A stretch of DNA of 63,437 nt, filler included. It is 13 parts of 13 records of this genome, joined end to end, with 100 filler letters (N's around TTAATTAATTAA, not from the genome) between each part and the next. Parts side by side here need not be neighbours in the genome. Positions count along the whole stretch, not along the records: positions 35,301 to 38,635 come from SRR7504441_10301; 12 more parts are not named here. The stretch is one strand, 5' to 3'. Of this stretch, positions 19,075 through 53,050 are shown in pieces. The notes under the pieces were generated by a model, which saw nothing but the letters and a program-made list of their open reading frames with translations, had not been told where the DNA came from and did not search any database. Each line of letters begins with the position of its first letter. The first letter of the stretch is position 1. The position numbers and the translations under genes are program-made.

Positions 19075-19888
19075 AGTTTGTATCAACTGAATTTCGTCCA
19101 ATTTCGCAAGGACAGCCAGGGGTAACTGGGGTTTCAGGGAATTCAGGCAATGGCTTCAGAGCCAAGACTCGACCCTAGAAGCTTTCGAAGGCTTGCACTA
19201 GCCTCTTCGCAGAGCAGCCGCGTGCCGATCGGTCACTCTCATCATATCGATATCCGCTTGATCAGCTACCCGCTCAGCCGAACAAGACTTAGTACTCAAG
19301 TGTTACTTGGCACCGCGCCACCGGCCACTAGCGGGCCACGGGTGCTCTTGATCGGCTCTCACGGGACCGGATGGGAGGCATGGGATCCGCTAGATGGGCC
19401 CGCCGATGGCCGCTAGCAACTGGTTAATTACGTTCTGTAGATCTATTAANNNNNNNNNNNNNNNNNNNNNNNNNNNNNNNNNNNNNNNNNNNNTTAATTA
19501 ATTAANNNNNNNNNNNNNNNNNNNNNNNNNNNNNNNNNNNNNNNNNNNNTGAAATACTGAGGTATCGACAGCCCTCTGGAGAAGCTGAAGCAGTAACTGG
19601 CGAGCCAGATATTAGACGAGATATATAGACGAGTCATCAAGGCGAAGCTCATCGTCCATGATCCATGCGGCAGTCGTGATGTCACGGCTCGACGGGCTCG
19701 AGTCACTCGAGGAGCCGGGCCGCCGCACGCCATCGCGCTCCATCCTCTCCCTCTCACCCGGAGATTCCCTGCGCCGCTGCGCCGTTACGATCCGCCCAAA
19801 GGCTCGTTCGTTACTGGTCTTACATGGATTCAAAGTCATGGTCGTCCTGGTTTAGGCAGAAGACCAAGCCGGATCGGGAAAAAAAAAG

Positions 19889-20107: not shown

Positions 20108-23046
20108 ATGCCGGGGCTTCTAGACTCGTTCCTCCGGGAACTACGCGACGCCGCACGGGCCTCCGCTGAGCCCGCCGAGCCGAAGCGTGCCTCCCAATTC
20201 GCCTTGCCTGTTGGCTGCCGTTCCGAGGACACGGCCGCCTGCTGCCCGAGCTTCAACGAATTCACTCAGGTGCTTGTCGCCCGGGCTTTTGGCCGAGCTC
20301 TTACGGTTTGCTCCTGCACCAGGCCCGCCCCCCCGTGGGACTCCCCGGAGGGACGCCGGAGGCCATCAAGCTGAGCGAGCTGGTCCAAGCCTTCCGCCGA
20401 AGCATCGCGGAGAGCAAGTACGTTGAGCTCGACTCGCAACTCACCAACCGGAGCCTCGAGCTGCTGACGGAGGTGCCGATCCCGGCCGCCCGGCCGAACC
20501 TCTTGGCTAACCGAGCGGCCCAGGTGAACCAAGCCGCGGCTAAGACCGACTCGTCCGCGGCGGTAGCCGAGATCAGCGGGCTGTTGAGGCAAACGATCGA
20601 GGGCCTGTCTGCTATGCTGACAGCGCCAACATTCGAGACGTGCATGGAGCAAGCGCAGGAGCGGGCGCATGGGCTGCACTCGGACATAGATGCCTGTGAG
20701 GCAGAGTACAAGAAGCGGACGCACGAACTTGACGTCGACCGGTGCGGGAAATTGAACGTTAAATTGAAAGACTTGTTGATGCAACTATGGGAGAACACTC
20801 AAGCCAGGCTCGGCCAGCTGCATTCGGCGGGCGATGCTGGCAAGAAGGCCAACAAGCTCTCTGAACAGGTCGAGGGGCACAAAGTGCTGATGCAGGGGGT
20901 CATAAACGACTACGAGCAGCTGAAGGAGCAGTCGGACAGCGAGCACGCCTGCGTGAGCCAGTCGGAGGTGCAGCTCGCCGCCTTTGAGGAAAGCATTCTG
21001 TCTGAATACCAGGGCGACCTGCAGTCGCTCAAGCAGACCTCCGAGCGGCTCAAGACCCGGCAGCTGCAACTGGAGGAGGTAGTCCGCACCAGCGTCAAGG
21101 AGCTGCAGAAGGTATATGGCGAGCAAGCTGAGACCAAGCACATCAAGGAAGCGACCGAAGCCACACTCAAGTACGCAAAGAAGACAATGACCGCCGAGAA
21201 GCGGAAGCTGCAGAAGAAGAGCACCGAGCTGCGTCGGACGCGCGAGGCGGCCCGGACAAGCTGCGTCATGCTGAGTGCAGCGAACGCGCTGGTGCTCAAC
21301 TCAGCCGAGCTGGCCAAGGCGGTGCGCGGGCACTGGAGCCAGAGCATGGAGGCCAAGGCGGGCGAGGTGCACATGGAAGTAGTGAGCATGCACCAGAAGC
21401 TTTGGCCGCAGCACCAGGAGCAGGCGGGCAGTCTCAGGTATACGCTGGAGAAGCAGATGTTTGAGGCCGAGGGAACCTTGAAGGCGGGCAGGCAGGCACT
21501 GGAGGAACGAAACATGATAGCAGCCCAGTTGCACAAGAAGCTGCAGGAGAGCATCCTTGAACAGCAGCGGGACACCAATGACAGCCTGGCTGAACTAACC
21601 GAGGAGATAGCGAAGCTGGACGCGGGCGCAAAGCTGTCCTACGCGGCGCTGGCAGCCAGCGGGCAGCCGCAGAAGGACCCTTACCCCGAGACTCAGTTCA
21701 AGATGCTGGACATTCACAAGAAGAAAATCATTCAGGAGCAGGCGCTCGTCTCATCCGGAGCGGAGGAGCTCGTGAACCGACTGCAGAACAAGCGGAAGGA
21801 AATCGACATGCTGATCGAGATAGCAAACGGTCAGCTCACGCTGGAGCAAGATCAGCAGTGGCCGTCATCTCACTGTGCCCTGATCCCCCAACCAGCGGCA
21901 GACCAACTCGACATGCTGCAGAGCTTGCACAAGCAACTCACACTGCTGGCACCGCGCAGCCCACCCACAGAAGCCGAGGCCACGCTGGCACCGCTCACAC
22001 CAGGCGGGTCAACCAAGCGGTCAATATCCGAGGTGGACTGTCTCGAGGCTGGTGCAACCGACTCGGACAACTGCGGTTCCAGCAAGCGACTTTGTGATCG
22101 GATCGACCTGCCAGAGAGTCTGAATGAGCTGGGCTCCCCCAGCCAGGCCAATAACGACGATCTGCTCAACAGCGATACAGACAATGACGATTTCCTCAAC
22201 AACAGCGAGGCCAACAATGACGATATCTTGGATGCTGGTTCTAACGCGCTTGAAACCCAACTGCTAGGAGTGGATCTGATTACAGACCCGCCTTCCGATG
22301 GCCGCAGTGACAGGGAGTGCTCGATTTCGCTGGGGGACGATGCAGACTTGCTGTCTCCACTAGGCATTGACCACAAGCCTATTTCGCTAGATCCCAACCT
22401 GATAGTGACCCGTGAGCAATCATCTATGGAAGTCACGACGGAACTCACATCAGAACTCTCGGAGGATAACCTGCAGGCATTGGCTACGCTGGATGATTGC
22501 CAGCTGAGTGCCATCTGCGACGAGCCGATGAGTAGCGAGTTGGAGCGGGGACTCGAAGATCTGGACGAGTTCAAGGACGCATCAAGTGACTTGGAATCAT
22601 TGATAGATACGCAGTGGGACTGTGCGCTAGACGACGCCTCACCCCACAGTCTTGAGACTGTTGAACCATTGAGGCTCTACAACAGCTTGAGCCTGGAGCC
22701 CACGCTGAACACGATACCTCTGCCGATGGAGCTAACTGCCACTCAGGATATCAAAATGCGGAAAAAGCCAAACGGCAGCACTGTCAGCAAACGTTCGCGA
22801 AAGCGTGACGGTAGAGCTGGCTGGCGCAAGTATGGGCAGAAGTGCATTAAGGGGAAAAGTGAAGACGAACCCATGATGCTTCGAGCCTACTTCAAATGCA
22901 ACCACCCGGGCTGTCCTGCAAGAAAGCAAGTAGAGATGACACTCGGTGCCGACGGGCCTGTGCTGGTGACACACAACCACCAGCACAGCCACCCGGCAGA
23001 GACACACCCCCTAGACAATCCCAAACCAACATGCTCACACGCTTAG
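20108..23046 (+). CDS. WRKY-domain transcription factor with a long N-terminal coiled coil and an acidic region
   Basis: WRKYGQK at 22822 plus a C-X4-C-X23-H-X-H finger. The ATG 20108 exon splices in frame through a GT-AG intron (20270-20322) into ORF 20308..23046. Confidence 0.85.
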
Positions 23047-23110: not shown

Positions 23111-23379
23111 CTGCAGATGTCACCACAAAGCACGTTACATGTACTATGCAATTATACTAGTTGGTACGATAAACACGATACATTAGGTTGAAATCCTGAA
23201 AATAAATATTTTTACACTAGCTTAGCTTTATTGAAGCATTATTTCCAAGTTTACAACGCGATCGGATGGGCCGCCTTGCNNNNNNNNNNNNNNNNNNNNN
23301 NNNNNNNNNNNNNNNNNNNNNNNTTAATTAATTAANNNNNNNNNNNNNNNNNNNNNNNNNNNNNNNNNNNNNNNNNNNN

Positions 23380-26888: not shown

Positions 26889-27143
26889 GCTGCGACCCCC
26901 GCGGCGGCTCCGCTACCCGAGCGGCCAGTTGCCTAACTCCACCAGCTGACACACACTGCGTGAGCCCGCGTCACCAAACGGTCAGCCGCACCGTCTCCTC
27001 GCCCGCACACCACTGGCCATCGTCACCACCGGCGCAGCCACCGNNNNNNNNNNNNNNNNNNNNNNNNNNNNNNNNNNNNNNNNNNNNTTAATTAATTAAN
27101 NNNNNNNNNNNNNNNNNNNNNNNNNNNNNNNNNNNNNNNNNNN

Positions 27144-30100
27144 CTATGCAGCCACCACGTTTGGAGTTCCAGTTGCGTTTGTAACAGGCATGGATGAACC
27201 TCTGTGAAAAGAGGTTGAAGACAGGGTACTCGGCTGCTGTCTCCTTGGACCCAGCCATAGTCACGATGGTCTGTGTGAATGTCTTGAGCACTTGCACTCC
27301 AACCTCGGTGACATCCTTGGCTTCTGATGTAAGCACTTGCTCAAGAGCAGCTAGGAACATATGGTGCGACAGTACTCCAGTGTTGACGTGCTCGAGTGGC
27401 GAGCCACAGGTCATGTACAGCAGTGCAAAGTGGCGAGCGACTTCGTCTGCAAGCTGGGCTGCATTGGCCTGGCGGGAGACCTTCAGGGTGGGGTCTGCAG
27501 CTGCAGTGAACAGTGCTGCAATCAGCTGCTGCAAAGTGTTGTGCTCTTCTGCCAAGTGCTCCTTGGTTTTCTTTGCACCGCGTGAGTCATCCTCCAGGTC
27601 CATGGCCACCGTGCCACTGGTAAGGCAGAAGCCAGCCCCGGCCTCATCTGCAGACACAGGCATCCGCCCATCGATATAAGATGACAGTGCAGTCATGCAG
27701 TCTTCACCATTCAGGAGGACTAGCAGTGTTGTGTGCAGAAATGCATGCGCTTGAATCTTCATGTGAGGATCGTCAGAACCATACCCGCCACTCTTGGCTG
27801 GGGTCATCATGATCTCAGCCACCTTGTGAATTGCAGAATCGAGGGGCACTGAACACATTTTGTCCCCATCAAAGCCTAGCTCAATCTTCAGATGCGAGTG
27901 AGGACACTCCTCCCATGTTACTGGGAGGGGCTGAGCTAAGAACCTTCGATTGCGGGACCCAAGCTTGCCCAGAATTCTGAGGGCCTGGGGGCCGGTCTGT
28001 GTGTTGGGCTGCACGAACCCCCAGAGAGTCAGCATCAATTGTGTGCGCATACCCGAACCCGAGATCAGCGAGTAGAGGAACTCAGGGTTGAGCTGATCAA
28101 TCCAAGACTCTAGAGTGTTCAAGCCGAGCATGATCAACTCGCCTTGTGATTTGAGCGCAACCACAAGTGGCTCCATCAGCAAGTGTAGATTAGGCAACAG
28201 TGACGAGAGTCTCGCTGGGATAGTCAAGCAGAGCTCTACAAACAGCTCACGCAGAGTCTGATTGTGGGCACCATTCTGCAGCCGGATGAGAGAGTTGAGC
28301 AGCTCTGGCAGCAGTGGCAAGAACTCTTTGTACAGTCCCTCAAATTTGATTCCTTCAATCGACTTGAACAGAGCTCGCAGAAGATAGAAGAAGTTGGATG
28401 GGTCTTTCACTTCCGTGGAGAGCCGAAGGCAGTTAGTGATGATGGCACGCAGGTGGCTGCGAAGCACCACCTCATTCTCGGGAAAGAGGTTGACAGAGCC
28501 AAACAGCATCTTGCACAAACGAAGCGGCACTGCAGAGTCTTTCTCACTCTCTGAGAGGACTGCTAATCGTCCAATCACAAAGCTGAGTAGGATGTCAGCA
28601 AAATACTTGGACACATTTGAGTTTGCTAGGAAATGCTGGGCAATTACGATGAGACCATTCACCTTGACAATATGGTCGAAAAGATTCTCCATCTGGGTAC
28701 CAACCACCTCCCTAAAGTTGTGCATTTCAAGCACTGTGAAAGCGGACGAGAACAAGTCAAGCAGATCTTTACGCTCACCAGAGAATGTTTGCGTTGCCTG
28801 CGCAATGAGCGGTCAGATTCAGTTCTTTAGGGTATGAGACGCACCTGCTGCTCGTCATTCAAGTCAACATAGAGCAGAATGAAACATTCCAGTCCGTCTT
28901 CAAAGAACTGTGACACCATTGCACACTCCTCTTCATTCATTCCCTTCCCAGATGAGGCAGGACGGGTTGCCAGGGACGAGCCAGCAGGGAGCCGCAGGTT
29001 TGAGAGAGACCACAAGATTGTCTTCATGCCCATCACAATGGTCTTGACTAATTGCTTGGCGTCCTTGATCAAGTCAGCCACCTTTTGTTCTGAAATGGTA
29101 GCTTTGCACGAAGTTGGGACAAGCCCGCATGCAGAGACCAACGACGGTCCATGCTTTGGTAGGTCCTTTTGGGCTTTTAGTAAGGACACAATCAGCGCCT
29201 TTACAGTGTGCATCTTGGTGATGAAAGCAAAGTAAACCTTTGTGAGCAGCAGTCGGCCTTTGCCGTCATTGGTGTTGTTGTGGTAGATGTTTTCTACCAT
29301 TGATAGAAGAAGACGGACTGATGCAATCTGCAGCACACACTCAGACCATACCTTCAGAGAATGGCTAACTCGCCTGGATGCCCAGAGTGAGAGTGTGATC
29401 GTGGATATTGCGTGAGAAGAGGTACACTACCCTCGAGAGTTGAGCAATCGAAAGCTTGTCTCTAACATCATGCACAAGGTCTGCCAGTGTCGAATACGCC
29501 AGTGACCGCAAGGTCTCAAAGCAAGTCCGCCCGCTGCCAATCAGCACCTGCTCGTTGAGCAGGTGATCGATCTTGGAGAAGAAGCCCATCCTGAAGTCGG
29601 TTTGCAAGATGTGCCTAGTGGCCACAAGAAGTTCCCTACGCATACTGACCGACTCCGAAGGGCAGTTCATCAGCAGCTGGATCACAGATACAGTGATCGA
29701 ATCGCGGTATGGCTGCATCATTTCCGCGAATGACCTGAGATGGTACGTGATATAGTACAAAGTCTTAACCTGCCGCTGGCTCAGCACTTTCGGACTAGGG
29801 ATGCTCTTGCCTGGGCTGCCATAAAGTCTGCAAATTTATCCTTGTGATTCTTAGCAGCCATCGTTGGAGGCTGTAGAGAGAGTGCCGTGACCATCACGGG
29901 CGTCAGCTGCGACATGTTGGGATGCACAAAGCGAGGATACAGCTGAAAGAGCAGGGTGACAATCAGAGGGCATTCAGTCAGCACTTTGAACGATTCTGTG
30001 GATCGGGCTAGCGTCACTGACTGGCTAGTCGGCTGATTTGGCCTGATTGGCGTCATCTGTGGCGACAGCTTTTGCGACTGTGGTGTGGGTGCAGGTCCAG

Positions 30101-31020: not shown

Positions 31021-31537
31021 CGGCCTCGCATCCTCCGCTGATTGACACTGAGGCTCGGTCGGGCGAATACACTCGGCGGCCTTGTTGCTGTCAACGGAAC
31101 TTGCACTTGCTTGGTGTAATAATGTACGAAGAGTTTACGAGTAGCTTCGTGTACAGTACGTATACAGTACAGTACATGTACCGTAGTTTCACCTATTTAA
31201 GACCCTCATTTTTTANNNNNNNNNNNNNNNNNNNNNNNNNNNNNNNNNNNNNNNNNNNNTTAATTAATTAANNNNNNNNNNNNNNNNNNNNNNNNNNNNN
31301 NNNNNNNNNNNNNNNTATGATGTTATTTTTTTATTGCGTAGTTACTAACTTGTACACATTGGTTAGTTTATGTGCCGAGCATTTATTAAAGCTCGACTAT
31401 GGAACTAGGGCCCAGAGGTTCGGCTAATTCAGCTGATAGCGAGCCGAGGCTCGTTGTCCGTTAAAAAAGCTGTCGATGCAGGATAGTAACCGGTGCTGCT
31501 GCGTCGTGACAGCGCTGCTCCGACACACACAGAGCAC

Positions 31538-32359: not shown

Positions 32360-35200
32360 TCACGGGCTCCTTGGACTCCTAGAATTCATTTTAGCCCGAA
32401 CCCTTGCCTCGGATTCCTTGAGCAGCCGCTGCTTGATTTGCTCATGTGTCTCTGGGCCGGGCGGACTGGCCGGCGGGCTCTGTGTTGAACTCTCAACAGG
32501 CTGCTCAGCGGGTTGTGTGCTGCTCGTGGCTTCGTCTTCGGTTTTTCTCGGAGTCCGAACTCGTCTGGTTGGAAATCCGACCCGCGGCGAGGCCCGTGGG
32601 CTCATTTTTACTGGGGTTGCCTTGTTGCCTTGACTGGTCGCAGCCGGCAGCTCAGCAGGCTTGATCGGTGTGACTTCAGGTTTGGATGCTTGAGTGCTGT
32701 CGGTGTGATCCGGGGTCCGGGCGAGCTGTACAGGTGCCACAGCGGCCTGCACACTCGTTGGCTCGCTCGCTGGCTCCGAGACCGGTTGGGGCTCAGCTTG
32801 TCGAGGCGTGCGAACCCTCCTGCTGGGGAATCCAACGCGGGGTGAAGCCGCTGGTGAAGCCCTCGGGCTTTCCTTGACAGAAGTTGCAAAGGCTTGCTGT
32901 GGCATTTTGAGTGCAGGCACTGTCACGCGAGCTGGCTCGTGGGCTAGTTTGGCAGTTTGTGGAGCCGGCGCGGTCACTCTAGCGATAGGTGAGCTTGTGG
33001 GCTGCTCGGCAGCAGGGCCTGCGCTTAGTTCCTCAAACTGTCTTGGTGTCCTCCTGGATCTGCTCGAAGGGAATCCGACCCGTGGCGAAGACCTCGGGCT
33101 CGGCTGGACAGCAGCATCGACTGCCGGAGTGGACTGCTTACTCTGCCCATCCGAGATAGGCGCGCCTGGCTCGTCTGATCCCTCAATTTGGGCTGGCGGT
33201 CCAGGGCTTGGCTCTGGCTGGGCCTTAGGTGGTTCAGGGCTCCGGAACCAACTGTTTTGAGAGGGTGGTGGTGCTGTTTTCCTTTCGATGGCCTCTGGAG
33301 GAGAGCGCGCAGGGTCATCGATAGAAGAGTCGCGCTTTTCATCGCTGGCGATCGATGCTGGCGCCATACTCTCGTGCTTAGCCAGCAGGGACGTGGTAAT
33401 TTCTTGCTCTTGTGAGGATCCTTTGAACCAGCTGCCTAAGTCCATAGCCTGACTGGGCCTGCCGTTGGGTGGAGACTGGCCATTTGCCTGCGGCTGAGGA
33501 GCTGGACGCGCGCTCGGGATCTCTACCGGCTCAGCTGACTGATCTGCACTTGCTTCGTCAGGCAAGCGGTCGATCACCAAACCAAGCGCCTTGGCCCTTG
33601 CACCCTTGTCAAACGGCTCCACGGTCAGCCGATGCAATGTCGCCAGTGAGTGGAGCTGCTCCACTGGCCCGGTATACTCGAGAGCGTCGTCCTTGCTGCT
33701 GGTGCTCCATCTGACTTGGCCGAGGAGTGTGTTGCAGCACAGGAAAAGCAGCCAGAACATGCGAACAGTGTCACAAGTGGCCGCTGCCAGCGACTCAACC
33801 TGGTCCAATGCGCTCAGCATCGCTTCGATCTGAGACAGGTCGAAAAGCAGTTGGTCGGCAGCGCTGGCCACCCACTGGGCCACTGCATCCAGATACCAGG
33901 CCTGCCCGATAAGCATACCCAGGTGTGCGTCGGTCAAGTGCTGCGAGCCCGTGTGCCTCAATATCTCATACATGGTGTCGTGCAGCTGTTCGAAGCAGGC
34001 ATCGTCGTCTGCCAGCTCCAGACTCTCTGTCGCTACTCGCCATAGTAAGTGCATGCCAATGAGCTGATCCGTCTCAATAGACACGATCTGGGTTGGATCA
34101 TCACACTCACTGCGGGCATCCCCCGTCACAGTCACTGCACCACTCCGCAAATTCTGGCTGAGGAAGACGGTCTGCATCATTTGAGCCGTGGCGGGCGTCG
34201 CTGAGGCAAACGACGGCACACGCACCAGCGCCGCGACGGCTGCATTCAGCTGTGATCGGTCGAGGATGGTGCAGATCTCACAAACCCACTCAGCGAGCTC
34301 GGTCACGCGCCAGTGGCAGCTCAGCAGCTGGGCGATGTACGCTCCGGTCAGCAGATCAGAGCCTGTGAACAGCAATATCCCCAGCTGCAGCTGAGCCAGT
34401 TCCTTAAACTGCCCATATTCCTTCCGTTCCAGCAGCTTCGGGGTGTGCCATGTCACCAGCTGCGCAAGCTCGGGTCCGGATCCCCGAAGCCACCGAACTG
34501 AACCGGCGGTGCCAGCGCTCACCATAACTGAAATTAGTTGCAGCACAGCGCTCCAGCTCCGAGGCGTTGCCGTGCTATGCTTGTCCAGGCAGTCATCCAG
34601 CCAGATCAGCGCCTCGGTCCCGTAGTAGTCCCAGGCCTCGTCCGGCTTGCGGGCCAGCTGCTGGCTCGGTCCGGCCTCCCAGACCGCGACCATCGACTCG
34701 CACAGCTGCTCGGCCCGCTGGTCGGACGAGTTGATCACGGTCCACATCGAACCCGCCACTTGCCACAGCTCGGTTGGGGAGAGGCTGGCCAGCCCGTCGG
34801 TGAACTGCTCACTCTGCAGCCAGCTCAGCTGGTCGTCATACTGCACGTCAGTCGCCCGTTCAAGCACGCTCATGCAGCTGCATATTGCAGACAGCTGCGC
34901 CGACGGCTCACCAGACAGCCAAAGTCGTTGGGCCATCGCCAGCGTGGTGCCAACTGACTGCTCAGCTGGCTCGATCATCAGCTGGCCGGCCTGGGTTGCG
35001 GCGTCCTGCCGCGGTGTGCTCGCCCTGCTGGCCATCTGTCGGGAGGCGAGCAGCAGCCTCCTCGCAGTGGGCGGCGCCTCCTGCCCCGGATCTGAGGTGT
35101 GTCCGTGCAATCCGCGGCTGTCCCGCTCCACTGCCAGATTGATTGCCCTCTGCCTCGGGGTCTTGGGCAAGTCACGAGCGGACCGCGGAGTGGCGGCGAC
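32360..35200 (-). CDS. Unknown protein with a helical N-terminal region and a P/S-rich tail carrying three SPRVGFP repeats; probably 5'-truncated
   Basis: The 936-aa ORF stays open to the contig edge; the repeats are visible in translation. Confidence 0.65.
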   Translation of the reverse strand, partial: VAATPRSARDLPKTPRQRAINLAVERDSRGLHGHTSDPGQEAPPTARRLLLASRQMASRASTPRQDAATQAGQLMIEPAEQSVGTTLAMAQRLWLSGEPSAQLSAICSCMSVLERATDVQYDDQLSWLQSEQFTDGLASLSPTELWQVAGSMWTVINSSDQRAEQLCESMVAVWEAGPSQQLARKPDEAWDYYGTEALIWLDDCLDKHSTATPRSWSAVLQLISVMVSAGTAGSVRWLRGSGPELAQLVTWHTPKLLERKEYGQFKELAQLQLGILLFTGSDLLTGAYIAQLLSCHWRVTELAEWVCEICTILDRSQLNAAVAALVRVPSFASATPATAQMMQTVFLSQNLRSGAVTVTGDARSECDDPTQIVSIETDQLIGMHLLWRVATESLELADDDACFEQLHDTMYEILRHTGSQHLTDAHLGMLIGQAWYLDAVAQWVASAADQLLFDLSQIEAMLSALDQVESLAAATCDTVRMFWLLFLCCNTLLGQVRWSTSSKDDALEYTGPVEQLHSLATLHRLTVEPFDKGARAKALGLVIDRLPDEASADQSAEPVEIPSARPAPQPQANGQSPPNGRPSQAMDLGSWFKGSSQEQEITTSLLAKHESMAPASIASDEKRDSSIDDPARSPPEAIERKTAPPPSQNSWFRSPEPPKAQPEPSPGPPAQIEGSDEPGAPISDGQSKQSTPAVDAAVQPSPRSSPRVGFPSSRSRRTPRQFEELSAGPAAEQPTSSPIARVTAPAPQTAKLAHEPARVTVPALKMPQQAFATSVKESPRASPAASPRVGFPSRRVRTPRQAEPQPVSEPASEPTSVQAAVAPVQLARTPDHTDSTQASKPEVTPIKPAELPAATSQGNKATPVKMSPRASPRVGFPTRRVRTPRKTEDEATSSTQPAEQPVESSTQSPPASPPGPETHEQIKQRLLKESEARVRAKMNSRSPRSP

Positions 35201-35300
35201 NNNNNNNNNNNNNNNNNNNNNNNNNNNNNNNNNNNNNNNNNNNNTTAATTAATTAANNNNNNNNNNNNNNNNNNNNNNNNNNNNNNNNNNNNNNNNNNNN

Positions 35301-38300
35301 CTGCAAGGTCACATGCCGGAGCGGCTGCTACGCGGTCCCCGTCCGGAGGGCTGGTCCTCGGCCGAGCTCCCCCACCGAATCCCGGACTATCAGCTGCCAG
35401 CGGCCGCCGGGCCGACTCGGCCGCTCGCCTGGGACACCTGCAGCCTCCGGGAGTACCGGGCGCACCTGCACGCCGCGCTGTACCACGAAGAGGCGCACGC
35501 CAGGCGGGAGCAGACGAGCTTCTGGAGGCGCAAACCGCTCGAGCCACTCGGGCGCTGCGAGAATGAGCGCGGCGAGTCCGGTCGCCTGTTTGGGCTGGAG
35601 CTGCCGCTCGAAGAGAAGCCGCCTGAGCAGTCTGACGAGTTGCATGTTGAGTGCGGCGAGGTGAGCTTTGTATGCTACTTCTGGGAAGTAGCCCCCAGCC
35701 CGGCCGGCGGGCACTGGGCCACCGTGGCGGCCCACGAGAGCTTTGGCAACCGGCCGCCGTACCGACTGCGCTTGGCCACCAGTCGGACTGCCAGTAGGGC
35801 GCAGCATCGGGCGATAGATCATTGCCGCGCCGCGGTGCTCATGCGAGGGAGGCAAAAGCTGGCCGTCTGCTCGCCACCGGACGGGCTGCCGAGTGCAGTG
35901 AGCGGGGTGCTGGGCATGCTCAACCATGCCCAGGCCGTAGCTTGCTGGACTATGGTCTCACATCAAGAGAGCCCACCTCAGCCGCGCACACTGCAAGGCC
36001 CGCCCGGCACCGGCAAGACCACGGTGCTCGCGTTTTCCGTGCTGGTGGCGCTCGATCAGCGTCCGGGCGCGAAAGTGTTGCTTTGTGCCCCTAGTAACGA
36101 GGCGGTCGATGTATGTTGTGCCAAGCTGGTCAGAAGCAAGCCAAATGTGGATCTGGTCCGGTTGAATCCGTTGCAGCGGGACCCGGACAGCTTGCCGCCA
36201 TCGCTCGAGGAGTATTCGGTGTTTGACCAGTCCGGCGGCCAGTTTGAAATTCCTGACTTGGAGCGAATGCGGCGGGCGAGCGTTGTGGCTTGCAGCTGCT
36301 CCTCAGCATCGTACATTGTCAGCTCGCTCAATGAAGGCGAATCAGGCTGGTTCACTCACGTATTCGTAGACGAGGCGGCCCAGGCCACCGAACCGGAGTG
36401 CCTGATTCCGCTGGGGCTGGCAGCCGAGACAGGCTCGGGTGTCTGGCTGCTGGGGGACTTCCACCAGCTGGGGCCGGTGGTGCGCTCTCCGGCTGCGGTC
36501 CAGTCTGGGTTATCTGAGCCGTTGATGCAGCGGGTGGTGCGGCAGGCCGGCGACGAGCTCGTTCTGCGGGAGTCTTACAGAGCACACCCGAGCATCCTGC
36601 GGCTGTATAACAACACGGTATACCAAGGGCAGCTCAAGCCGGGGCATAACCCGCCGTCCGCAGCGCAGGTGTGCATGCTGCAGCACAGGATCTTTGCGCA
36701 GAGCAACGGTCACCCCGTGCTGTTTGAGCATGTGGAGGGCACCGCCGAATCAGTTGGAAATAGCGTATGCAACAGGGCGGAGGCTGAGCGTGTTGTGGCC
36801 TATTTGAAGGATCTCATGGGCGATGGGTCGGTTGCGCCAGACGACATTGGCGTCATCACCCCGTATGCAGCTCAGAGAAGACTGTTGCAGGAGATGTGCG
36901 GAAGCGCGATGGCGGACCAGATCACGATAGGGACCGTGCATAAGTTTCAAGGGAGTGAACGGAAGGTGCTCCTTGTGAGCACAGTCCGGTCAGGCAGTAA
37001 GGGTAACTTCGATTTGAGGCGAGATCTTGGGTTTGTCGCCGACTCCAGAATGGCTAACGTCACGGTGAGCAGAGCAGAAGCAGGGATTGTAGTGGTGGGC
37101 GACATGCGCACATTGTCTCACCACCTGGTATGGAACAAAATCATCAGGGAGGCTGATCAGCTAGGAGCGCTTCACAATCTGAGTAAAGACAAGTTAGTCA
37201 GTATCGAGCGGGCTGAGGATAGCATCGTGTGCCACACGCCAGGCAGCGTGGTCAGCAGTGGGCGCAGTGAACCGCACGGGTATGTATTCATATGCAACAA
37301 TAGGACGCAGGATGAGTGCCTGGGGCGCGGGTTGTTTGGGCTGCCACAACGCTCGCTGAAGCATATGCAAGAGCACATCCACGATGGCACCGTCTGTCTA
37401 CTGTACAACCGTGATAACCAGACACTCCTGGGGCCATTCTATGCCAACGGTCAGCCGGCAAAGGATATTCAACCGGGCGCCTGGAGAGACACCGCCGGGC
37501 GCCTGTTCCCAGCTCAGGTGAAGGTGCAGCACGGGACGCTTGGGAAGCGCAAGAGGCACATAGACCAGGCAAATGGCGGGCTTCTGGAGCCGAAAGCGCT
37601 GCAGCCGCTGATGGACGAGCTGCAGCGGCACAGGCTTGAAGCAGATAAGGTGGTGGTGAAGAGCTTTGAGGAAGTGATGAGAGAGAAGCGGCAGCGGGCC
37701 TCAGGCAGTGCGCTGCGCGAGTTGAGTGCAGAGCAAGCGGCCTCCATTGAGGAGCAGTTCCATAAGGCATGGCGGCATACTGACAGGCCGCCACCGAAAT
37801 TGGTGAAACTGTGGGGCATCGAGTCGTCACAGGCTGTAAAAGACAGGTTCAGGTCGTACCAGCAACAAGTGCGCGATGCCCGCGGGCACGAGGACGGCGC
37901 ATGTGCAAGAGACGGAAACACCCGTCGGAGATTTCACGGGACCTGCAGATTGTGTGGAATCGGGGAAGGTGGCCCCTGCGTCACAGTCCCATGCAATCGT
38001 GCAGAATGTTCCTTGTGCTGTATTGTGAGAGACGGGTTCAAGTTGCCGGAGCTTTCCGCAAATAATCGGTTTGGAGCAGGGATTTATACTACGAGCACTG
38101 CGAGCAAGGCATGCGACTACCCCTTAGACGCGCCGCAGGGCGAGCGTGTGGTTATAGTGTGTTCTGTGGTGGCTGGTCTGGTGCATAAACGATCCGAATC
38201 GTGGCTTCCGGAGGACAGAACAAGAACAGCGCCACCAGATGGCCGCGATTCGATCGTTGGTGAGCCACTCGGCGATCCAGCAAAGAACGCGCTTGATGCT

Positions 38301-38423
38301 GAAGCACGTGGACCCGGCGACAACGTGGCCCTGCAGAATCCTTTGAACTTTGATGAGCTCGTTGTCTACGACGCAGCGGCAGTCTTGCCGACTGCATTCA
38401 TTTTATACGATTTTCAATCCTAA
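35301..38423 (+). CDS. MOV10/SDE3-like SF1 RNA helicase fused to a DCD domain and a PARP-like ADP-ribosyltransferase; probably 5'-truncated
   Basis: Helicase motifs GPPGTGKT, FTHVFVDEAAQATEPECLIPL, GDFHQLGP, SYRAHPSIL, GVITPY, HKFQGSE, NVTVSRA. DCD motifs GYVFICNNRTQDECL..LFGLP..FPAQV. ART motifs RRFHGT, RFGAGIY, NFDELVVY. Confidence 0.85.
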   Translation: MQGHMPERLLRGPRPEGWSSAELPHRIPDYQLPAAAGPTRPLAWDTCSLREYRAHLHAALYHEEAHARREQTSFWRRKPLEPLGRCENERGESGRLFGLELPLEEKPPEQSDELHVECGEVSFVCYFWEVAPSPAGGHWATVAAHESFGNRPPYRLRLATSRTASRAQHRAIDHCRAAVLMRGRQKLAVCSPPDGLPSAVSGVLGMLNHAQAVACWTMVSHQESPPQPRTLQGPPGTGKTTVLAFSVLVALDQRPGAKVLLCAPSNEAVDVCCAKLVRSKPNVDLVRLNPLQRDPDSLPPSLEEYSVFDQSGGQFEIPDLERMRRASVVACSCSSASYIVSSLNEGESGWFTHVFVDEAAQATEPECLIPLGLAAETGSGVWLLGDFHQLGPVVRSPAAVQSGLSEPLMQRVVRQAGDELVLRESYRAHPSILRLYNNTVYQGQLKPGHNPPSAAQVCMLQHRIFAQSNGHPVLFEHVEGTAESVGNSVCNRAEAERVVAYLKDLMGDGSVAPDDIGVITPYAAQRRLLQEMCGSAMADQITIGTVHKFQGSERKVLLVSTVRSGSKGNFDLRRDLGFVADSRMANVTVSRAEAGIVVVGDMRTLSHHLVWNKIIREADQLGALHNLSKDKLVSIERAEDSIVCHTPGSVVSSGRSEPHGYVFICNNRTQDECLGRGLFGLPQRSLKHMQEHIHDGTVCLLYNRDNQTLLGPFYANGQPAKDIQPGAWRDTAGRLFPAQVKVQHGTLGKRKRHIDQANGGLLEPKALQPLMDELQRHRLEADKVVVKSFEEVMREKRQRASGSALRELSAEQAASIEEQFHKAWRHTDRPPPKLVKLWGIESSQAVKDRFRSYQQQVRDARGHEDGACARDGNTRRRFHGTCRLCGIGEGGPCVTVPCNRAECSLCCIVRDGFKLPELSANNRFGAGIYTTSTASKACDYPLDAPQGERVVIVCSVVAGLVHKRSESWLPEDRTRTAPPDGRDSIVGEPLGDPAKNALDAEARGPGDNVALQNPLNFDELVVYDAAAVLPTAFILYDFQS

Positions 38424-38878
38424 GGCTAGGGGTAGGCTAGGGGTACATGGTAGGTACATGGTACATGTACTACTAACTAACTAACTAAGTACTAACATGT
38501 ACAAGTTAGAGATGATTGTACGAAACACGAATTGCTTGATTATACGGTAAAATTTACGATGAGAACACTTTGTCTACGTAATACATACGTAATACTCGTA
38601 CAGTCATACGTAACAGTGACCCGGTACGTGAACTANNNNNNNNNNNNNNNNNNNNNNNNNNNNNNNNNNNNNNNNNNNNTTAATTAATTAANNNNNNNNN
38701 NNNNNNNNNNNNNNNNNNNNNNNNNNNNNNNNNNNTCCTTTAGACATTTTTAACGACAATCCCCCCACTACGTACTCCATGGTACTCGTATTTGATAACA
38801 ACTTGTACTCCTAAACTATACTGACTAGCGTAACTTCTAGCGGACTGACCATCTAGAAAGGAACCTACTAAGTTATAT

Positions 38879-46379: not shown

Positions 46380-46559
46380 CCCGCCTGCCTCCCGCCGTGC
46401 GATTCAGCGATTCAAGCTGAGCTCGCTTTGTCCGTATGATTTTCGTTTATTGTATTACANNNNNNNNNNNNNNNNNNNNNNNNNNNNNNNNNNNNNNNNN
46501 NNNTTAATTAATTAANNNNNNNNNNNNNNNNNNNNNNNNNNNNNNNNNNNNNNNNNNNN

Positions 46560-47073
46560 ACCCCTTGAGATCGACTGTGGCCTGCGCCTTTTTAGCAGTC
46601 GTCTCCCCAGAACTGGTGAAGTCATGCTGGACCGGGTGGCAGCCGTCGGCCAGGCCGCAGAACAGCATCTTGAGGTTGCAGTAGTTGGTCCCGAAGTCGC
46701 CCACCGAGGTCACTTGACTCTCGGAGCACGCCTCAATCTTGCAGCTCCCCCCGGCCGGGGTCAGGCTGAAGATCATCTTGTCAGTGTACTTGCCCGGGAA
46801 TGGCTGGGCGCCTCCGGTCGAGCTTGCAGTGGCCCGCGAGAAGGACATGGTGCCCCCGAGCTTCTCGTTGAAGTACGTGCCGTTGTTGTGCGGGTCATGC
46901 CAGACTGTATACTGCCCGTCCACCCGCGCGTGCGCCTCGGCCTCGACCACGGCGCAGGAGGCGTTGGCGGTGGCGGTGATCTCCATCCCGGCGTGGGTGA
47001 GGATAGCAGGGCTCCCTGGGCAGGTCATTGCGGCGGCAGCGGCCAGCGTGGAGATCAGGAGGGCCGAGCGCAT
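46560..47073 (-). CDS. Small secreted Cys-containing protein of unknown function, 3'-truncated
   Basis: Signal MRSALLISTLAAAAA; conserved-looking motifs DPHNNGTY, KYTDKM and CSESQVTSVGDFGTNYCN. Confidence 0.65.
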
Positions 47074-47141
47074 TGCTGACTTCGAATAACGGAATCCACG
47101 GCTCCGAGGCTGTTCTGCGCACGAACAGGCACCAGCGCGCG

Positions 47142-48980
47142 ATGTCACAATCTGCGTCTGACCCGGCAACCACGACTGCCCCGACTGCGAGTCCGACCAC
47201 CGGCGCTCCCATCCGCCGAATCCTGGTGATCTACACCGGCGGGACGATCGGGATGAAGCCGTCGGAGCGGGGCTACATCCCGGCCAAGGGCTACCTGCCC
47301 TCGGTGCTCCGCTCGCTCGCCATGTTCAGCGACAACCAGTTCGACCTGTCAGGGGTGCCCAGGCCGGACGGCTGCGACGCCCCGATGATCACCCCAGTCT
47401 CAGAGTACGGCGAGCGCAGCCTGTACGCGATCAGGGAGTACGCGCCGCTGCTAGACTCTAGCAATATGGACCAGACCCACTGGGCTCGGATCGCGCAGGA
47501 CATTCACCAGGCGTACGACGACTGGGACGCGTTTGTCGTGCTGCACGGGACGGACACAATGGCGTACACGGCGGCTGCACTCAGCTTCATGCTGCAGAAC
47601 ATCAATAAAACGGTGATATTAACCGGCTCGCAGATCCCGCTTTCTCGGCCGCGGAACGACGGGATCGGCAACCTGCTGGGGGCGCTGAACATCGCCGGGC
47701 ACTTTGACATCCCCGAGGTCTGTCTCTACTTTGGCAACTCTTTGCTGCGCGGCAATCGGGCGTTCAAGGCCAGCACGAGCGAGCTTGCTGCATTTGAGAG
47801 CCCCAACCTGCCACCGCTCGCCGTGACGGGGATCTCAACACGCGTCAACTGGAATCTAGTGCGGAAACCGCCGACGGAGCCGCATGCGTTCCATCCGGAG
47901 TTTTGCAACGACATTTCGATCCTGAGGATTTATCCTGGACCGTTCAACACAATCAGGAACATGCTGGCCCCGCCTCTCAAGGGCCTCGTGCTCCAGACGT
48001 TTGGTGCGGGCAACGCACCCGACTCCAACCAGGAGCTGATGTCAGCATTAAAGGAGGCCTCGGACAGAGGGGTGGTTATTGTGAATATCTCGCAATGCGG
48101 TCGGGGCGAGGTGGAGGCTCACTACGCTACTGGCGTGGCTCTCAAGGAGGCTGGGGTGGTGCCTGGCCTGGACATGACCACGGATGCTGCCGTAGTGAAA
48201 CTTGGCTGGCTGCTCGGTTCGAACCGATCCCCCGAAGAGGTGAGGCGCTTGATGCAAACCAATATGTGTGGCGAGCTGTCCGAGGCTGTGCAAAAGGTTC
48301 AGTTCAGCCTCAACAGCGAGGGCTTCCTGAGATCGGTTTATACCGCGCTAGTCGCCGGCAAAATGGAGTCCTCCGGGCAAGACACAAACGCGCAGATCCG
48401 TGAGGCGTTGATGCCTACACTGTGCTGCTCTGCTGCTGGCAAGGGGCTTTTGGAAGACCTCAAGAAAATGCTTTCGGATGGGAGCGCCGACGCCGCCTGC
48501 GCAGACTATGATTCTCGGACTCCGTTGCATTTAGCAGCAAGCGAGGGTCATGCCGATGTTGTGCAGTTCCTCCTCGAGGCACGGGCCAACCCAAGCGCTG
48601 TGGACCGTTTCGGCGGAACCCCGCTCCAGAATGCGGTTGACTGTGGCTCCAAAGACTGTCTTTTGCTCCTTCGCGATGCAGGAGCCGAATTTGCCCCGAA
48701 TTCTGAGATCGGTGGCCGACTCTGCAAGTTAGCAGCTGCAGGACACGCAGAAGCGCTGAGCTTGCACCATCTCGCTGGAGTTGACCTCAATACAGGCGAT
48801 TATGACCAAAGGACAGCCTTGCACTTGGCGGTTGCTGCTAAACAACTCGAGACTGTGAAGACGCTCATCAAGGCAGGTGCAGACCCCAGCCTCAAAGACG
48901 GGTTTGGAACCAGTGCGGTGGATGAAGCCGCCAAGCTCGCAGATCAAGCCATTATCGGGGCCTTGGAACCTCTCCAATAG
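47142..48980 (+). CDS. ASPG: Type I L-asparaginase / 60-kDa lysophospholipase with ankyrin repeats
   Basis: ILVIYTGGTIGM, PLLDSSNM, FVVLHGTDTMAY and ILTGSQIP; C-terminal DYDSRTPLHLAA and DYDQRTALHLA ankyrins. The ATG at 47142 is the likely start. Confidence 0.93.
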   Translation: MSQSASDPATTTAPTASPTTGAPIRRILVIYTGGTIGMKPSERGYIPAKGYLPSVLRSLAMFSDNQFDLSGVPRPDGCDAPMITPVSEYGERSLYAIREYAPLLDSSNMDQTHWARIAQDIHQAYDDWDAFVVLHGTDTMAYTAAALSFMLQNINKTVILTGSQIPLSRPRNDGIGNLLGALNIAGHFDIPEVCLYFGNSLLRGNRAFKASTSELAAFESPNLPPLAVTGISTRVNWNLVRKPPTEPHAFHPEFCNDISILRIYPGPFNTIRNMLAPPLKGLVLQTFGAGNAPDSNQELMSALKEASDRGVVIVNISQCGRGEVEAHYATGVALKEAGVVPGLDMTTDAAVVKLGWLLGSNRSPEEVRRLMQTNMCGELSEAVQKVQFSLNSEGFLRSVYTALVAGKMESSGQDTNAQIREALMPTLCCSAAGKGLLEDLKKMLSDGSADAACADYDSRTPLHLAASEGHADVVQFLLEARANPSAVDRFGGTPLQNAVDCGSKDCLLLLRDAGAEFAPNSEIGGRLCKLAAAGHAEALSLHHLAGVDLNTGDYDQRTALHLAVAAKQLETVKTLIKAGADPSLKDGFGTSAVDEAAKLADQAIIGALEPLQ

Positions 48981-50191: not shown

Positions 50192-52954
50192 CTACATGTA
50201 AGCTTTCGGTGCGATCGAGACGTCATCAATCCAGACTGTCGAGCCCAAGTTTTGGCAGCCACCACACATGCTCAAGTGACCGGGTGCAAACATGAGCTGC
50301 GGTGCCTGCGCGATGGGAGCTTTTCCAGCCGACACAGCGGGCACATGGAATGAGGTATGCAACTGCGACCACGTTCGTGCGGCAGTCCCAATGAGAGGGT
50401 AAGCAGCAATCGACGTGCTGTTTGCCAGGGCTCCGAATGTGAAGTACACTCCGGCGCCAATGGGCGAGCTTCGCACCCAGAGAAACAGGTCGTACGTCAC
50501 CCCAGGTTGCAACGGACCCGGCGCGTGCTTGGTAAGCACGGGGATAGGGATCCACACAGGCACGGTAGTGGGCAGCAAGATCTTGAGAGAGTAACGCCCG
50601 CTCTTGGGGTCAGCCGGATCCGAAGCGATGCGTGTGCGGTCGTCATTTGTGGCGCAGCAGCCATGCTTCATGTACGCCATCTGCCAGCCATCGCAGCAGA
50701 CTGCGCCGAGCCCACCAGGGCGCGCTGAACCGTCGTTGGCGCCTGCAGATAGCGAGACGAATTCGAAGCCGCCGTTGAGGACGAGGCAGTTAGACTTGCC
50801 AAAGGGGTGGCCTGGTCGGGCGAGAGAACCCGGAGTCTTTGAGTCAGTCACTACCGTGCAGTTGTGATCGTGCACATAGCAGCCCAGACGATAGACATTT
50901 GTGGCCGCTGCATCTACGATGTCGGTGAAGGACCAGTTGCCGCTGGTGGCGTTGCGTGTGATGTTCACAGGGTAGTTGGCATTGAAGATGCGCTGCAGGG
51001 GGTAGCACTCCCCTGGCTGGTTGCACGAGCCAGGCCAGGCGATATCTGCCAAAACCGGTGGCAAATCAAGCCCTGAGATCTCTGAATGTATGGTCGCTGG
51101 CAGCTCCTTGCCATTTGCAACGACGATAGTATAGCAGAACGCATCGCCAGGGGCGTCGATCTGATGCTCTTCACGGAAAATACGGCTCGCCACCGTGGCT
51201 GGTTGCTTTGGCACCACCAATGGGTTCAACACGTGCGTAGTGATCGCTGCAGTGTTGTTGAGCAGATTAGCAGAAGAGAAGAGGGCAGGCACGAGCTCCG
51301 AGGCCTCAGCGCCAAACCAAGCGATCTCGGTGTCGGTATGCCTGTTTGTATATTGGCCTTGCCCGCCACCTCCACACATATCGAATGCGTTGATCATCAT
51401 GGTTGCACCGATTAGCGAAGAATAGCTGTGGGTCCGCAGCCCGTGGACAGAGAAAGCTCCTGGGAGAGGCATGTTCATCATCGGCGTGTAGGTCATCGGG
51501 TAAGTGTTGATCGACTTAAACGTGTCCATCCCGCCTCCGTATGCCTCAGCCATGGTCACATCCAGTCCGAGCCCGGAGCTGCCCCACGCGTCCTTCCACA
51601 TCCACATCACTCTGCACGCCACGGTACCGAAAATGAGGTGATATGGGTCATGCTTTCGAATGATGGAATGGATCTTAGCCAGCGCATAGAACTGAACCGG
51701 TCCATATTGCTGAACCACCCCTGGATGGCAGCAGTCATCGCAGCCGTACCAGCCCGCAACCGCCGGATGATCCTGGATCAGACTAAGGTTCCCCAAGGTC
51801 CATTTCTCCCAATCAGCTGCTGTGGTCCAATTGGCCTGGCTCACTGGGATGCCAGCGATCGCGTTAGCCCACGTTTGAATGGGCAGGTTGGCAATTAGCG
51901 AGATCCCTGCAGCATGCGCCGCATCCGCCACGAACCTCCACTCCAGCAGCGCCTCAGCCTCTGCCTGCTCGCTCCACGCAGCACCGCTCACATAGCTGCC
52001 GCCGACCCTCACCATATTGATCCCCATTTTGCCCCATTCCGAGAGGAGCGAGGCCTGGCGCAGGCACGAATCCGACACGGTAAAGCCTTTACCGGACTGG
52101 ATGTACGGGATGTACGCGTTCGGCGGCAGCCCGGAACCGACGCCCTGCATCCCTCCGGCCCCAAACCAGCCCACTCCGAAGAAGCGCTTGCTGTCTACCC
52201 GTAGCCCAGAGCGCGTATGGTCGACCTGCCAGATGGTGGCGGCGCTGCCTGCCCTGGGCGGAGGTGCACGGAGGAAGAGCCGGCTGTGATTGAAGACTAT
52301 CCCGGATTTGGTTGTCACTGTGATAACAACTAGCTCATCCACAGAGCTCGGAAGTCCAGAAAGCGGGAAGCGCACCAGCGAGCCCACCCCCGGGGCGGCC
52401 ATGCCCGTGACCACTGTGGAGCCGTTTATGATGGCGTGCACCATCGCCGGTCCGACCGAGTAGTCTAGGGTGACTACGATCGAACCGACCGACTCCTCGA
52501 CGTACGGTCGGTACCCAAAGTCGACTGTCGCCCCAACAAAGTGCTCGAAGGAGGCGTGCGCGTGCCCGGCAATGCAGGTGCCGTCTTGCAGCGACAGGCA
52601 CGCGGAGGTGTTGCCCGGGGTGGCCACGCGCGGCAGCCTGCCCACCAGCCCCGAGGAGAGCGGCACCACCTCGAAGTCATAGCTCTGATTCTTCTTAAAA
52701 TTGTCCCCGATCGGCGGCAGCCGCAGGGCCCAGTTGGCATAGCAGTTGAGCCCGTCGTCCCCCGGGCTGGTTGTCCGGCCGGCGAAGCAGCTCCCAGTGG
52801 TGTCCCGCCGGAGCGTAAGGAATAGCGGGCCGGAGGGCAGCTGGCCCGCGCCTGTCACGGCAACCGGGACCTCGAGGTCGATCGGGTACCGAGCCCGATC
52901 GAGCGTGATGGCCAGCGCATGCGGTGCAAGCAGGAGGGGCAGCCACCCGAGCAT
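50192..52954 (-). CDS. Secreted glycoside-hydrolase-like protein (TIM-barrel-like core plus CBM4/9-like C-terminal beta-sandwich)
   Basis: Signal MLGWLPLLLAPHALA; LRVDSKRFFGVGWF, MGINMVR and HPAVAGWYGCDD..IIRKHDPYHL; C-terminal VLNGGFE..SGRYSLKI..VWIDDVSI. Confidence 0.6.
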   Translation of the reverse strand: MLGWLPLLLAPHALAITLDRARYPIDLEVPVAVTGAGQLPSGPLFLTLRRDTTGSCFAGRTTSPGDDGLNCYANWALRLPPIGDNFKKNQSYDFEVVPLSSGLVGRLPRVATPGNTSACLSLQDGTCIAGHAHASFEHFVGATVDFGYRPYVEESVGSIVVTLDYSVGPAMVHAIINGSTVVTGMAAPGVGSLVRFPLSGLPSSVDELVVITVTTKSGIVFNHSRLFLRAPPPRAGSAATIWQVDHTRSGLRVDSKRFFGVGWFGAGGMQGVGSGLPPNAYIPYIQSGKGFTVSDSCLRQASLLSEWGKMGINMVRVGGSYVSGAAWSEQAEAEALLEWRFVADAAHAAGISLIANLPIQTWANAIAGIPVSQANWTTAADWEKWTLGNLSLIQDHPAVAGWYGCDDCCHPGVVQQYGPVQFYALAKIHSIIRKHDPYHLIFGTVACRVMWMWKDAWGSSGLGLDVTMAEAYGGGMDTFKSINTYPMTYTPMMNMPLPGAFSVHGLRTHSYSSLIGATMMINAFDMCGGGGQGQYTNRHTDTEIAWFGAEASELVPALFSSANLLNNTAAITTHVLNPLVVPKQPATVASRIFREEHQIDAPGDAFCYTIVVANGKELPATIHSEISGLDLPPVLADIAWPGSCNQPGECYPLQRIFNANYPVNITRNATSGNWSFTDIVDAAATNVYRLGCYVHDHNCTVVTDSKTPGSLARPGHPFGKSNCLVLNGGFEFVSLSAGANDGSARPGGLGAVCCDGWQMAYMKHGCCATNDDRTRIASDPADPKSGRYSLKILLPTTVPVWIPIPVLTKHAPGPLQPGVTYDLFLWVRSSPIGAGVYFTFGALANSTSIAAYPLIGTAARTWSQLHTSFHVPAVSAGKAPIAQAPQLMFAPGHLSMCGGCQNLGSTVWIDDVSIAPKAYM

Positions 52955-53050
52955 TTGCCGAGCTCCAGCCCAGCTGCAGCGTAACGGCAATCAGGCAGGC
53001 ACCGCCACGCGCGCCAGGAGACAGGACGCGAGGCGGCTGCGGGCGGCTCG

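Follow-up and report, generated by a model that had tools for sequence, protein, structure and literature searches.

A MOV10-like helicase, a DCD domain and a PARP-family domain combined in a rare single-chain protein of an uncultured marine eukaryote

The window analysed here, a stretch of 63,437 bases, consists of 13 contigs of 3.3-12.3 kb separated by 12 artificial spacers (N44-TTAATTAATTAA-N44). One of the contigs (positions 35301-38635, 3335 bp, flanked by artificial spacers) carries a gene whose product, P0001, combines a MOV10-like helicase, a DCD (Development and Cell Death) domain and an ADP-ribosyltransferase (ART) domain of the PARP family in a single chain. The gene is real and belongs to an uncultured marine eukaryote; pieces of its contig are present in marine metagenome runs. 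Homologue searches and overlapping contigs indicate that the helicase-DCD-PARP fusion is itself real and that it is rare. The features of this contig are listed below, where pLDDT stands for the predicted local distance difference test of the structural models.

35301-38423, plus strand: single open frame, 1040 codons open, first ATG at 35313, stop at 38421-38423
35445-35822, plus strand: MOV10-like helical stalk and beta-barrel region (aa 45-170), placed by colinearity with the Symbiodinium protein P0004
35910-37172, plus strand: Upf1-like superfamily 1B (SF1B) helicase core (aa 200-620), motifs I-VI, Walker A Lys235
37278-37529, plus strand: DCD domain (aa 656-739), PF10539 with E 1.3e-16, 60.9 bits (cut-off 27.8)
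37530-37709, plus strand: helical linker of low confidence (aa 740-799), helices at 760-777 and 785-796 with pLDDT <50
37656-37697, plus strand: VKSFEEVMREKRQR motif, in the low-confidence linker helix just ahead of the ART domain
37710-38420, plus strand: PARP-family ART domain, tankyrase-like (aa 800-1036), with H875, Y925, Y936 and E1015
37944-38021, plus strand: Cys-rich insert directly after HGT, C881-x12-C894-x4-C899-x2-C902
38424-38635, plus strand: 3' flank of 212 bp, AT-richer (GC 0.39), reaching the contig end

The product is 1036 aa long when counted from the ATG at 35313. Because the frame is open to the first base of the contig (35301) and the relatives P0003, P0004 and L001 (the best metagenome locus) all reach at least 320 residues further upstream than the position matching P0001 aa 44-48, the gene is probably 5'-truncated by the contig edge. 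The N-terminal part lost in this way is expected to measure about 280-330 residues and might hold an Ig-like or a second DCD domain. The original prediction, made from the bare sequence, had described one uninterrupted open reading frame (ORF); the single frame is confirmed, but its beginning at the contig edge, and with it the probable truncation, had not been noticed. Codon-position GC is coding-like over the whole ORF (35313-38423). The GC content of third codon positions (GC3) starts at about 0.83 on the 5' side of the ORF and drops to about 0.55 on the 3' side, gradually and with no step at the domain borders.

A protein with such a combination could also be produced by an assembly chimera or by run-through of neighbouring genes, and the shortness of the contig (3335 bp), the low coverage of the organism and the drop in GC3 could be read in that way. 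Such an artefact is nevertheless extremely improbable. The change in GC3 is stepless, the open stretch spans 1040 codons in a single frame, and two independent assemblies encode helicase and PARP in one chain, both parts being the closest kin of those in P0001. Three other marine runs contain contigs that are at least 98% identical, cover positions 36839-37069, 37080-37381, 37191-37341, 37279-37650 and 38133-38335 and show no joints; between 37080 and 37650 they bridge the helicase/DCD and the DCD/linker junctions. In run X1, the helicase, DCD and ART pieces have a similar depth (2-3.1). Cover from other runs is lacking for 35301-36838 (except the Walker-A spot), for 38336-38635 and for 37651-38132, where the linker passes into the ART domain; the last gap is the one that would suit a chimera. 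Four pieces from run X3 were rejected as parts of the gene: they match the Walker-A stretch only, at 90-95% identity, with flanks unlike those of the query, and are assigned to other helicases.

The full-length homologues listed are the best 120 of 300 at E≤0.001, drawn from 7999 scored candidates. The complete combination of helicase, DCD and PARP occurs in just two of these 120, P0002 and P0003, both from metagenome assemblies independent of that of the query. P0002 (876 aa, N-terminally incomplete) contains the C-terminal half of the helicase, two DCDs and the PARP domain, and P0003 (1226 aa) an N-terminal DCD followed by the helicase and PARP. An additional zinc finger may lie in P0003 at residues ~150-200, where a Cys-rich stretch separates the N-terminal DCD from the helicase region. 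Seen from the other end of the protein, two of the 150 best ART relatives carry a helicase, the same two carry a DCD, and none of the seven short matches to query aa 600-1036 has a DCD.

When metagenome loci were scanned for relatives of the three tri-domain proteins by means of two helicase patterns, 593 pattern matches and 535 confirmed relatives resulted. All of the best 80 loci listed match only within query residues 44-667 and none reaches the ART domain; the contigs of P0002 and P0003 themselves are not among these loci. Viral contigs yielded no relative through P0001 or the ART family pattern, which is weak evidence in a scan limited to one or few peptide patterns, and the 30 matches of the ART pattern in prokaryote genome contigs included no confirmed relative, which is equally weak evidence from a pattern-limited scan. 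In the literature searched, PARP, DCD domain and helicase occur together only in Bell et al. (PMC7641849), where, in the accessible part of the paper, PARP stands in a reference title only. The terms PARP catalytic domain, MOV10 and fused were not found together in that literature; Bell et al. and Cury et al. may list such architectures in their supplementary tables. The original prediction had placed the three domains in a single frame and had named a chimeric join and a widespread conserved architecture as findings that would speak against it. The single frame holds, the independent assemblies also giving helicase and PARP in one protein; no join is seen wherever other-run contigs cover the gene (37651-38132 being uncovered), and the architecture is rare in the homologue listings.

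The helicase is the best-defined part of the protein. On the 1036-aa product, Pfam AAA_11 scores 104.2 bits (1.3e-29) and AAA_12 (aa 401-598) 142.1 bits (2.1e-41), with a cut-off of 27. Motifs I, II, III, IV, V and VI are all present, as in Upf1-like SF1B helicases, including Walker A GPPGTGKT at 35997-36020, DEAAQ at 36369, GDFHQLGPV at 36453, TVHKFQGSE at 36933 and NVTVSRA at 37056-37076. The best relatives of known structure are UPF1 chains (1.8e-46), followed by SMUBP-2, DNA2 and SEN1. In the full-length AlphaFold2 model, the helicase core has a pLDDT >90. Helicases of the Upf1/MOV10 family are 5'-to-3' translocases on single-stranded RNA.

The closest named relative is the Symbiodinium protein P0004, whose cluster mates are annotated MOV10 or mov10b. 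P0001 aa 48-620 are colinear with P0004 323-878 at 35% identity (BLASTP), a stretch that spans the Pfam MOV-10 beta-barrel of P0004 (357-414). The Pfam MOV-10 helical (PF21635) and beta-barrel (PF21634) families have no direct match in P0001 at E≤1. In the N-terminal part of the model, the helix 45-70 reaches a pLDDT of 87-93 and the strands at 77-141 only ~50. L001 is a canonical MOV10-type gene with Pfam matches for the Ig-like (PF21633), helical, beta-barrel and helicase domains; in P0001, an Ig-like domain PF21633 would fall upstream of the contig edge at 35301.

The position of the helicase was also considered in a quick tree (LG+G4) of 41 rows, picked from the matches to represent named groups, the remaining matches being left out. 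The query groups with P0002 at 98 and, with P0003 added, at 99; the sister group of this trio (93) is formed by the MOV10-annotated Symbiodinium proteins. These and the trio belong to a clade of 10 rows (99), together with two rows named 'helicase MOV-10', two fungal rows and P0099, and the UPF1, SEN1/MAA3, DNA2 and SPRY-helicase rows fall outside it. The placement of the helicase in the MOV10 clade is thus supported by sequence comparison, the group names being automated source annotations. For the whole protein, the nearest Protein Atlas clusters are 'helicase MOV-10' at 0.87, which is below the 0.9 level and serves as a lead only. A complete MOV10-type SF1 helicase, as first proposed, is borne out by the Pfam matches, the motifs, the tree and the colinearity with P0004.

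At the C-terminus, the ART domain carries RRFHGT (37926-37943), GAGIYTT (38073), ACDY (38109) and FDELVVY (38349-38369). An exhaustive HMMER search with query aa 770-1036 matched 913 cluster representatives at E≤0.001, 326 of them at ≤1e-10 and seven at ≤1e-30. The family alignment of 48 rows was built from the query and 47 of the best 150 of these 913 relatives. Every row (48/48) matches PF00644 at E≤0.001, and P0003 does so with 39.4 bits. All 48 rows share the H, a G, four Cys and the tyrosine of GIY; the catalytic E and a second Y are nearly invariant. Compared with solved structures, the family profile finds tankyrase-1/2 chains first (1e-24), then PARP4, PARP3, PARP2 and PARP1; a single-sequence search with the ART piece of the query gave chance matches only. 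The AlphaFold2 model of the domain has a pLDDT of 85.8 and a predicted template-modelling score (pTM) of 0.81, and Foldseek matches it to the catalytic domains of tankyrase (E 3.9e-14, with a TM of 0.72-0.79 on the target). The three tri-domain proteins agree at H875, Y925 and E1015, and the counterparts of these residues in tankyrase lie in HG[ST], GIY and [DA]E. According to model and alignment, the C-terminal region folds as an ART with an intact H-Y-E site for NAD+.

Directly after the HGT motif lies the Cys-rich insert, whose C881, C894, C899 and C902 are invariant in the 48 family sequences and in all three tri-domain proteins. It has no counterpart in tankyrase, and the profile match splits around it. 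This Cys4 insert is presumed to be a zinc knuckle, zinc binding being inferred. Basidiomycetes, an amoebozoan, Anaeramoeba and Selaginella all have named proteins with the insert, the one from the plant Selaginella being 'tankyrase-like' by source label. Judged from these sequences, they apparently represent a sizeable, eukaryote-wide and unnamed PARP subfamily; no name for it was found, and the accessible part of a fungal PARP preprint contains no description of it. Other fusions occur among the 48 rows, with ankyrin repeats in three, TRAF zinc fingers in one, a protein kinase in one and a NADAR domain in one. In the ART tree, the three tri-domain ARTs fall in one 7-row clade (96), together with four metagenome proteins that show PARP only, some of them on very short contigs. 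Because the helicase and ART trees are congruent, the helicase-PARP core would have a single origin, the DCD modules having been moved or duplicated later.

The original prediction had recognised a PARP-like ART with H, Y and E and a Cys-rich insert. Both stand: the first through the 48/48 PF00644 matches, the tankyrase profile match, the fold predicted by AlphaFold2 and Foldseek and the residues H875, Y925 and E1015, the second through the four invariant Cys. The region also models as an ART fold, a failure of which had been named as damaging to the proposal. The start of the domain had been put too late, at FHGT (37935); it begins at about aa 800 (nt 37710).

Between helicase and ART, the DCD domain carries the signature FxCN...ECL...LFGLP...FPAQV. 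It had been predicted at about 37275-37530, and PF10539 places it at 37278-37529. The nearest Protein Atlas clusters of this part are DCD at 0.77, again below the 0.9 level and a lead only. Bell, Wolf and Koonin (2020) placed the DCD domain in the PUA-like superfamily through profile comparison with EVE, and in the accessible part of their paper the binding of modified bases is given as a prediction (PMC7641849). By this analogy, the DCD of P0001 is predicted to form a PUA/EVE/YTH-like pocket and to act as a reader of modified bases. The following linker contains the short motif VKSFEEVMREKRQR that had been seen between DCD and ART; it is indeed found there, is retained in P0002 and is weakly retained in P0003.

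The protein might instead serve in the surveillance of DNA or chromatin. The DCD would then read a modified DNA base, the motor would work on DNA or R-loops in the manner of DNA2, IGHMBP2 and senataxin, and the PARP domain, like PARP1-3, would signal damage or mark chromatin. The nearest named helicases are from dinoflagellates, whose DNA is heavily base-modified, and the Upf1-like DNA2, SMUBP-2 and SEN1 are among the solved-structure matches. Prokaryotic DCDs are fused to DNA restriction modules, McrB-like or PD-(D/E)XK, in the accessible part of PMC7641849. The helicase, however, lies in the MOV10 clade, apart from the DNA2 and SEN1 rows, the N-terminal region is MOV10-like, and the Pfam scan of P0001 gave no DNA-binding or WGR/BRCT-type domain. 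A role on DNA is therefore considered improbable.

The protein is a variant on two known themes, the helicase joined to an effector and the RNA-binding module joined to a PARP domain. With MOV10, MOV10L1, Armitage and SDE3 it shares the full set of helicase motifs, the colinear helical and beta-barrel region and the position in the tree; unlike the query, the MOV10-type proteins named in the sources or literature searched have no DCD or PARP domain. Tankyrase-1/2 (PARP5a/b) is the best profile and structural match of the ART domain, the H-Y-E triad being common to both, but the ankyrin repeats and SAM domain of tankyrase were not found in the query by Pfam. The zinc site of tankyrase, after the SSKSNQY segment, corresponds to a gap in the query's family profile, and the query has the Cys4 insert after HGT instead. 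The antiviral PARPs ZAP/PARP13, PARP12 and PARP7 are alike in logic, as they link an RNA-binding module to a PARP catalytic domain. In the query, RNA would be bound via the helicase and the DCD; the CCCH fingers and WWE domain of ZAP, PARP12 and PARP7 were not found in P0001 (Pfam, E≤1). These proteins are mono-ARTs or inactive, and the triad of the query is H-Y-E.

In the Mokosh system (MkoA/MkoB, fused MkoC), a MOV10-like helicase is likewise joined to an effector. The query helicase matches the MkoA profile at 6.4e-65 and the MkoC profile at 7.7e-40. Mokosh and MOV10L1/PLD6 share domains, according to the accessible part of the report (10.1101/2022.12.12.520048). The effector of Mokosh is a PLD nuclease and the system is bacterial, whereas the query is eukaryotic, has a PARP domain and shows no PLD domain in the Pfam scan. 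Finally, plant NRP-type proteins, algal CPSF30-YTH-DCD-KH proteins and prokaryotic DCD-McrB or DCD-nuclease proteins share PF10539 with the query. The pairing of DCD with a helicase and a PARP domain is a feature of the query and is not described for DCD proteins in the accessible part of PMC7641849.

The protein would probably act in RNA surveillance, with target selection by the helicase and the DCD coupled to ADP-ribosylation. Both such a coupling and the antiviral sensor-effector of the original prediction are proposed from what the three domain families do elsewhere. The surveillance of selfish RNAs, such as those of viruses and retroelements, is the most likely role, although we propose it tentatively; it would have parallels in MOV10/Armitage/SDE3, in ZAP/PARP12/PARP7 and in helicase-effector defence proteins such as Mokosh. 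MOV10 has antiviral and anti-retroelement roles, as do ZAP and PARP12, and an antiviral or anti-transposon role of P0001 is plausible by analogy. The helicase would load onto RNA and scan it in the 5'-to-3' direction, and the flexibly tethered DCD would report the modification state of that RNA. On a selected ribonucleoprotein (RNP), the PARP domain would then use NAD+ to ADP-ribosylate itself, the bound proteins or possibly a nucleic-acid end. As a result of this mark, the RNA might be silenced, degraded or arrested in translation.

The same three domains could instead work in housekeeping or regulatory RNA metabolism, with no immune role. The DCD would read a modification of endogenous mRNA or non-coding RNA (m6A, m5C), the helicase would remodel RNPs and the PARP domain would tune decay, translation or granules. 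In the accessible part of PMC7641849, the DCDs of algae and heterokonts are fused to YTH, KH and CCCH-finger domains in CPSF30-like mRNA-processing factors, and this suits such a role; fusions to YTH, KH and CCCH modules are reported there for heterokont and haptophyte proteins. The nearest solved relatives of the helicase, which are Upf1-like, and the closest structures of the ART, tankyrase-like PARPs that are regulatory enzymes, point the same way. A core RNA-processing factor would, however, be expected to be widespread and vertically inherited, while just three proteins with this domain set are found among the matches listed, and the position and copy number of the DCD vary among these three. 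We therefore regard housekeeping as somewhat unlikely.

Several points weigh against the surveillance of selfish RNAs and the domain assignments beneath it. The DCD region is modelled at a pLDDT of 28-57 only in the full-length AlphaFold2 model, for which the alignment held three DCD-bearing rows, and no ligand for any DCD protein is reported in the literature searched. PF00644 scores 21.4 bits on the whole query and 26.0 bits on its C-terminal piece, both just below the cut-off of 26.7. An intact H-Y-E triad neither proves activity nor distinguishes poly- from mono-ADP-ribosylation. The names of the helicase groups come from automated source annotation, the tree is a quick LG+G4 one, and the MkoA profile is unspecific, more than 1 million eukaryotic proteins matching it in the accessible part of the Mokosh report (10.1101/2022.12.12.520048). 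The passage from the linker into the ART (37651-38132) lies in a stretch uncovered by other runs. No RNA runs are among the sequencing runs listed as holding the gene, and the 3.3-kb contig bears this single gene and hence has no gene neighbourhood. That the architecture is rare and its domains are shuffled would suit a conflict system, but it would also suit any lineage-specific invention.

A more specific form of the surveillance of selfish RNAs would make P0001 a single-chain sensor-effector of eukaryotic innate immunity, an enzyme of a type not described before. Its MOV10-like motor would thread foreign RNA, its DCD would test self against non-self by modification, and its PARP domain would ADP-ribosylate the RNA end or bound proteins, or would burn NAD+, and so stop the invader. 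This form is doubtful. If it were true, the protein would be the equivalent, in a protist, of Mokosh and the ZAP-plus-helicase systems, and it would provide the first functional context for the DCD in eukaryotic nucleic-acid immunity.

If the coupling itself is true, the protein joins the MOV10-type helicases of silencing, the PUA-like modification readers and ADP-ribosylation as an immune output, three subjects that mostly have separate fields of study, and the DCD gains a biochemical context that can be tested. In a fast-evolving conflict gene one would expect what is seen here: a helicase-PARP core that is conserved and DCDs that shift in position and number around it. The finding also points to the apparently unnamed PARP subfamily with a Cys4 insert after its HGT motif. 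It is limited by its uncultured source and by an architecture known from three members only among the matches listed.

The 13 contigs of the window are joined by spacers, each N44-TTAATTAATTAA-N44, at the following positions.

5051-5150: artificial spacer
10220-10319: artificial spacer
14148-14247: artificial spacer
19450-19549: artificial spacer
23280-23379: artificial spacer
27044-27143: artificial spacer
31216-31315: artificial spacer
35201-35300: artificial spacer, just ahead of the contig of P0001
38636-38735: artificial spacer, just after the contig of P0001
42405-42504: artificial spacer
46460-46559: artificial spacer
58873-58972: artificial spacer

The spacer at 35201-35300 is not biology, and the contigs on its two sides are unrelated; since the window consists of 13 separate contigs, adjacency across a spacer carries no meaning. 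A common organism for all 13 contigs is not proven. The dinoflagellate spliced-leader motif has no match in the window.

Other contigs of the window carry eukaryotic genes, with a WRKY domain, Csf1_N, asparaginase with ankyrin repeats, a Tra1/TRRAP fragment, a papain-type protease and an HMG box. The 12-kb contig is dense in genes, with long uninterrupted frames on both strands. Three very long ORFs on the minus strand, at 5513-8806, 32360-35170 and 50192-52990, encode products of 1097, 936 and 932 aa. No Pfam family matches these products at E≤1e-5, and they may be lineage-specific proteins, again from the uncultured eukaryote. The Tra1/TRRAP fragment (27088-28755, minus strand) runs off its contig. 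Its named relatives in fungi and animals show 33-36% identity over nearly the whole length and those in oomycetes 32%; identity rises to 43-44% in some named matches that span about half of the fragment, and to 50% in the best unnamed match. Because these named relatives are so distant, the source organism appears to be without a close sequenced relative in the collection. The ORF at 20308-23046 (plus strand, 912 aa) has at its C-terminus a DNA-binding domain of the WRKY family (4.6e-13), which is found mostly in plants and protists. At 47028-48980 (plus strand), the N- and C-domains of an asparaginase are fused to ankyrin repeats, in the same architecture as in the 60-kDa lysophospholipase.

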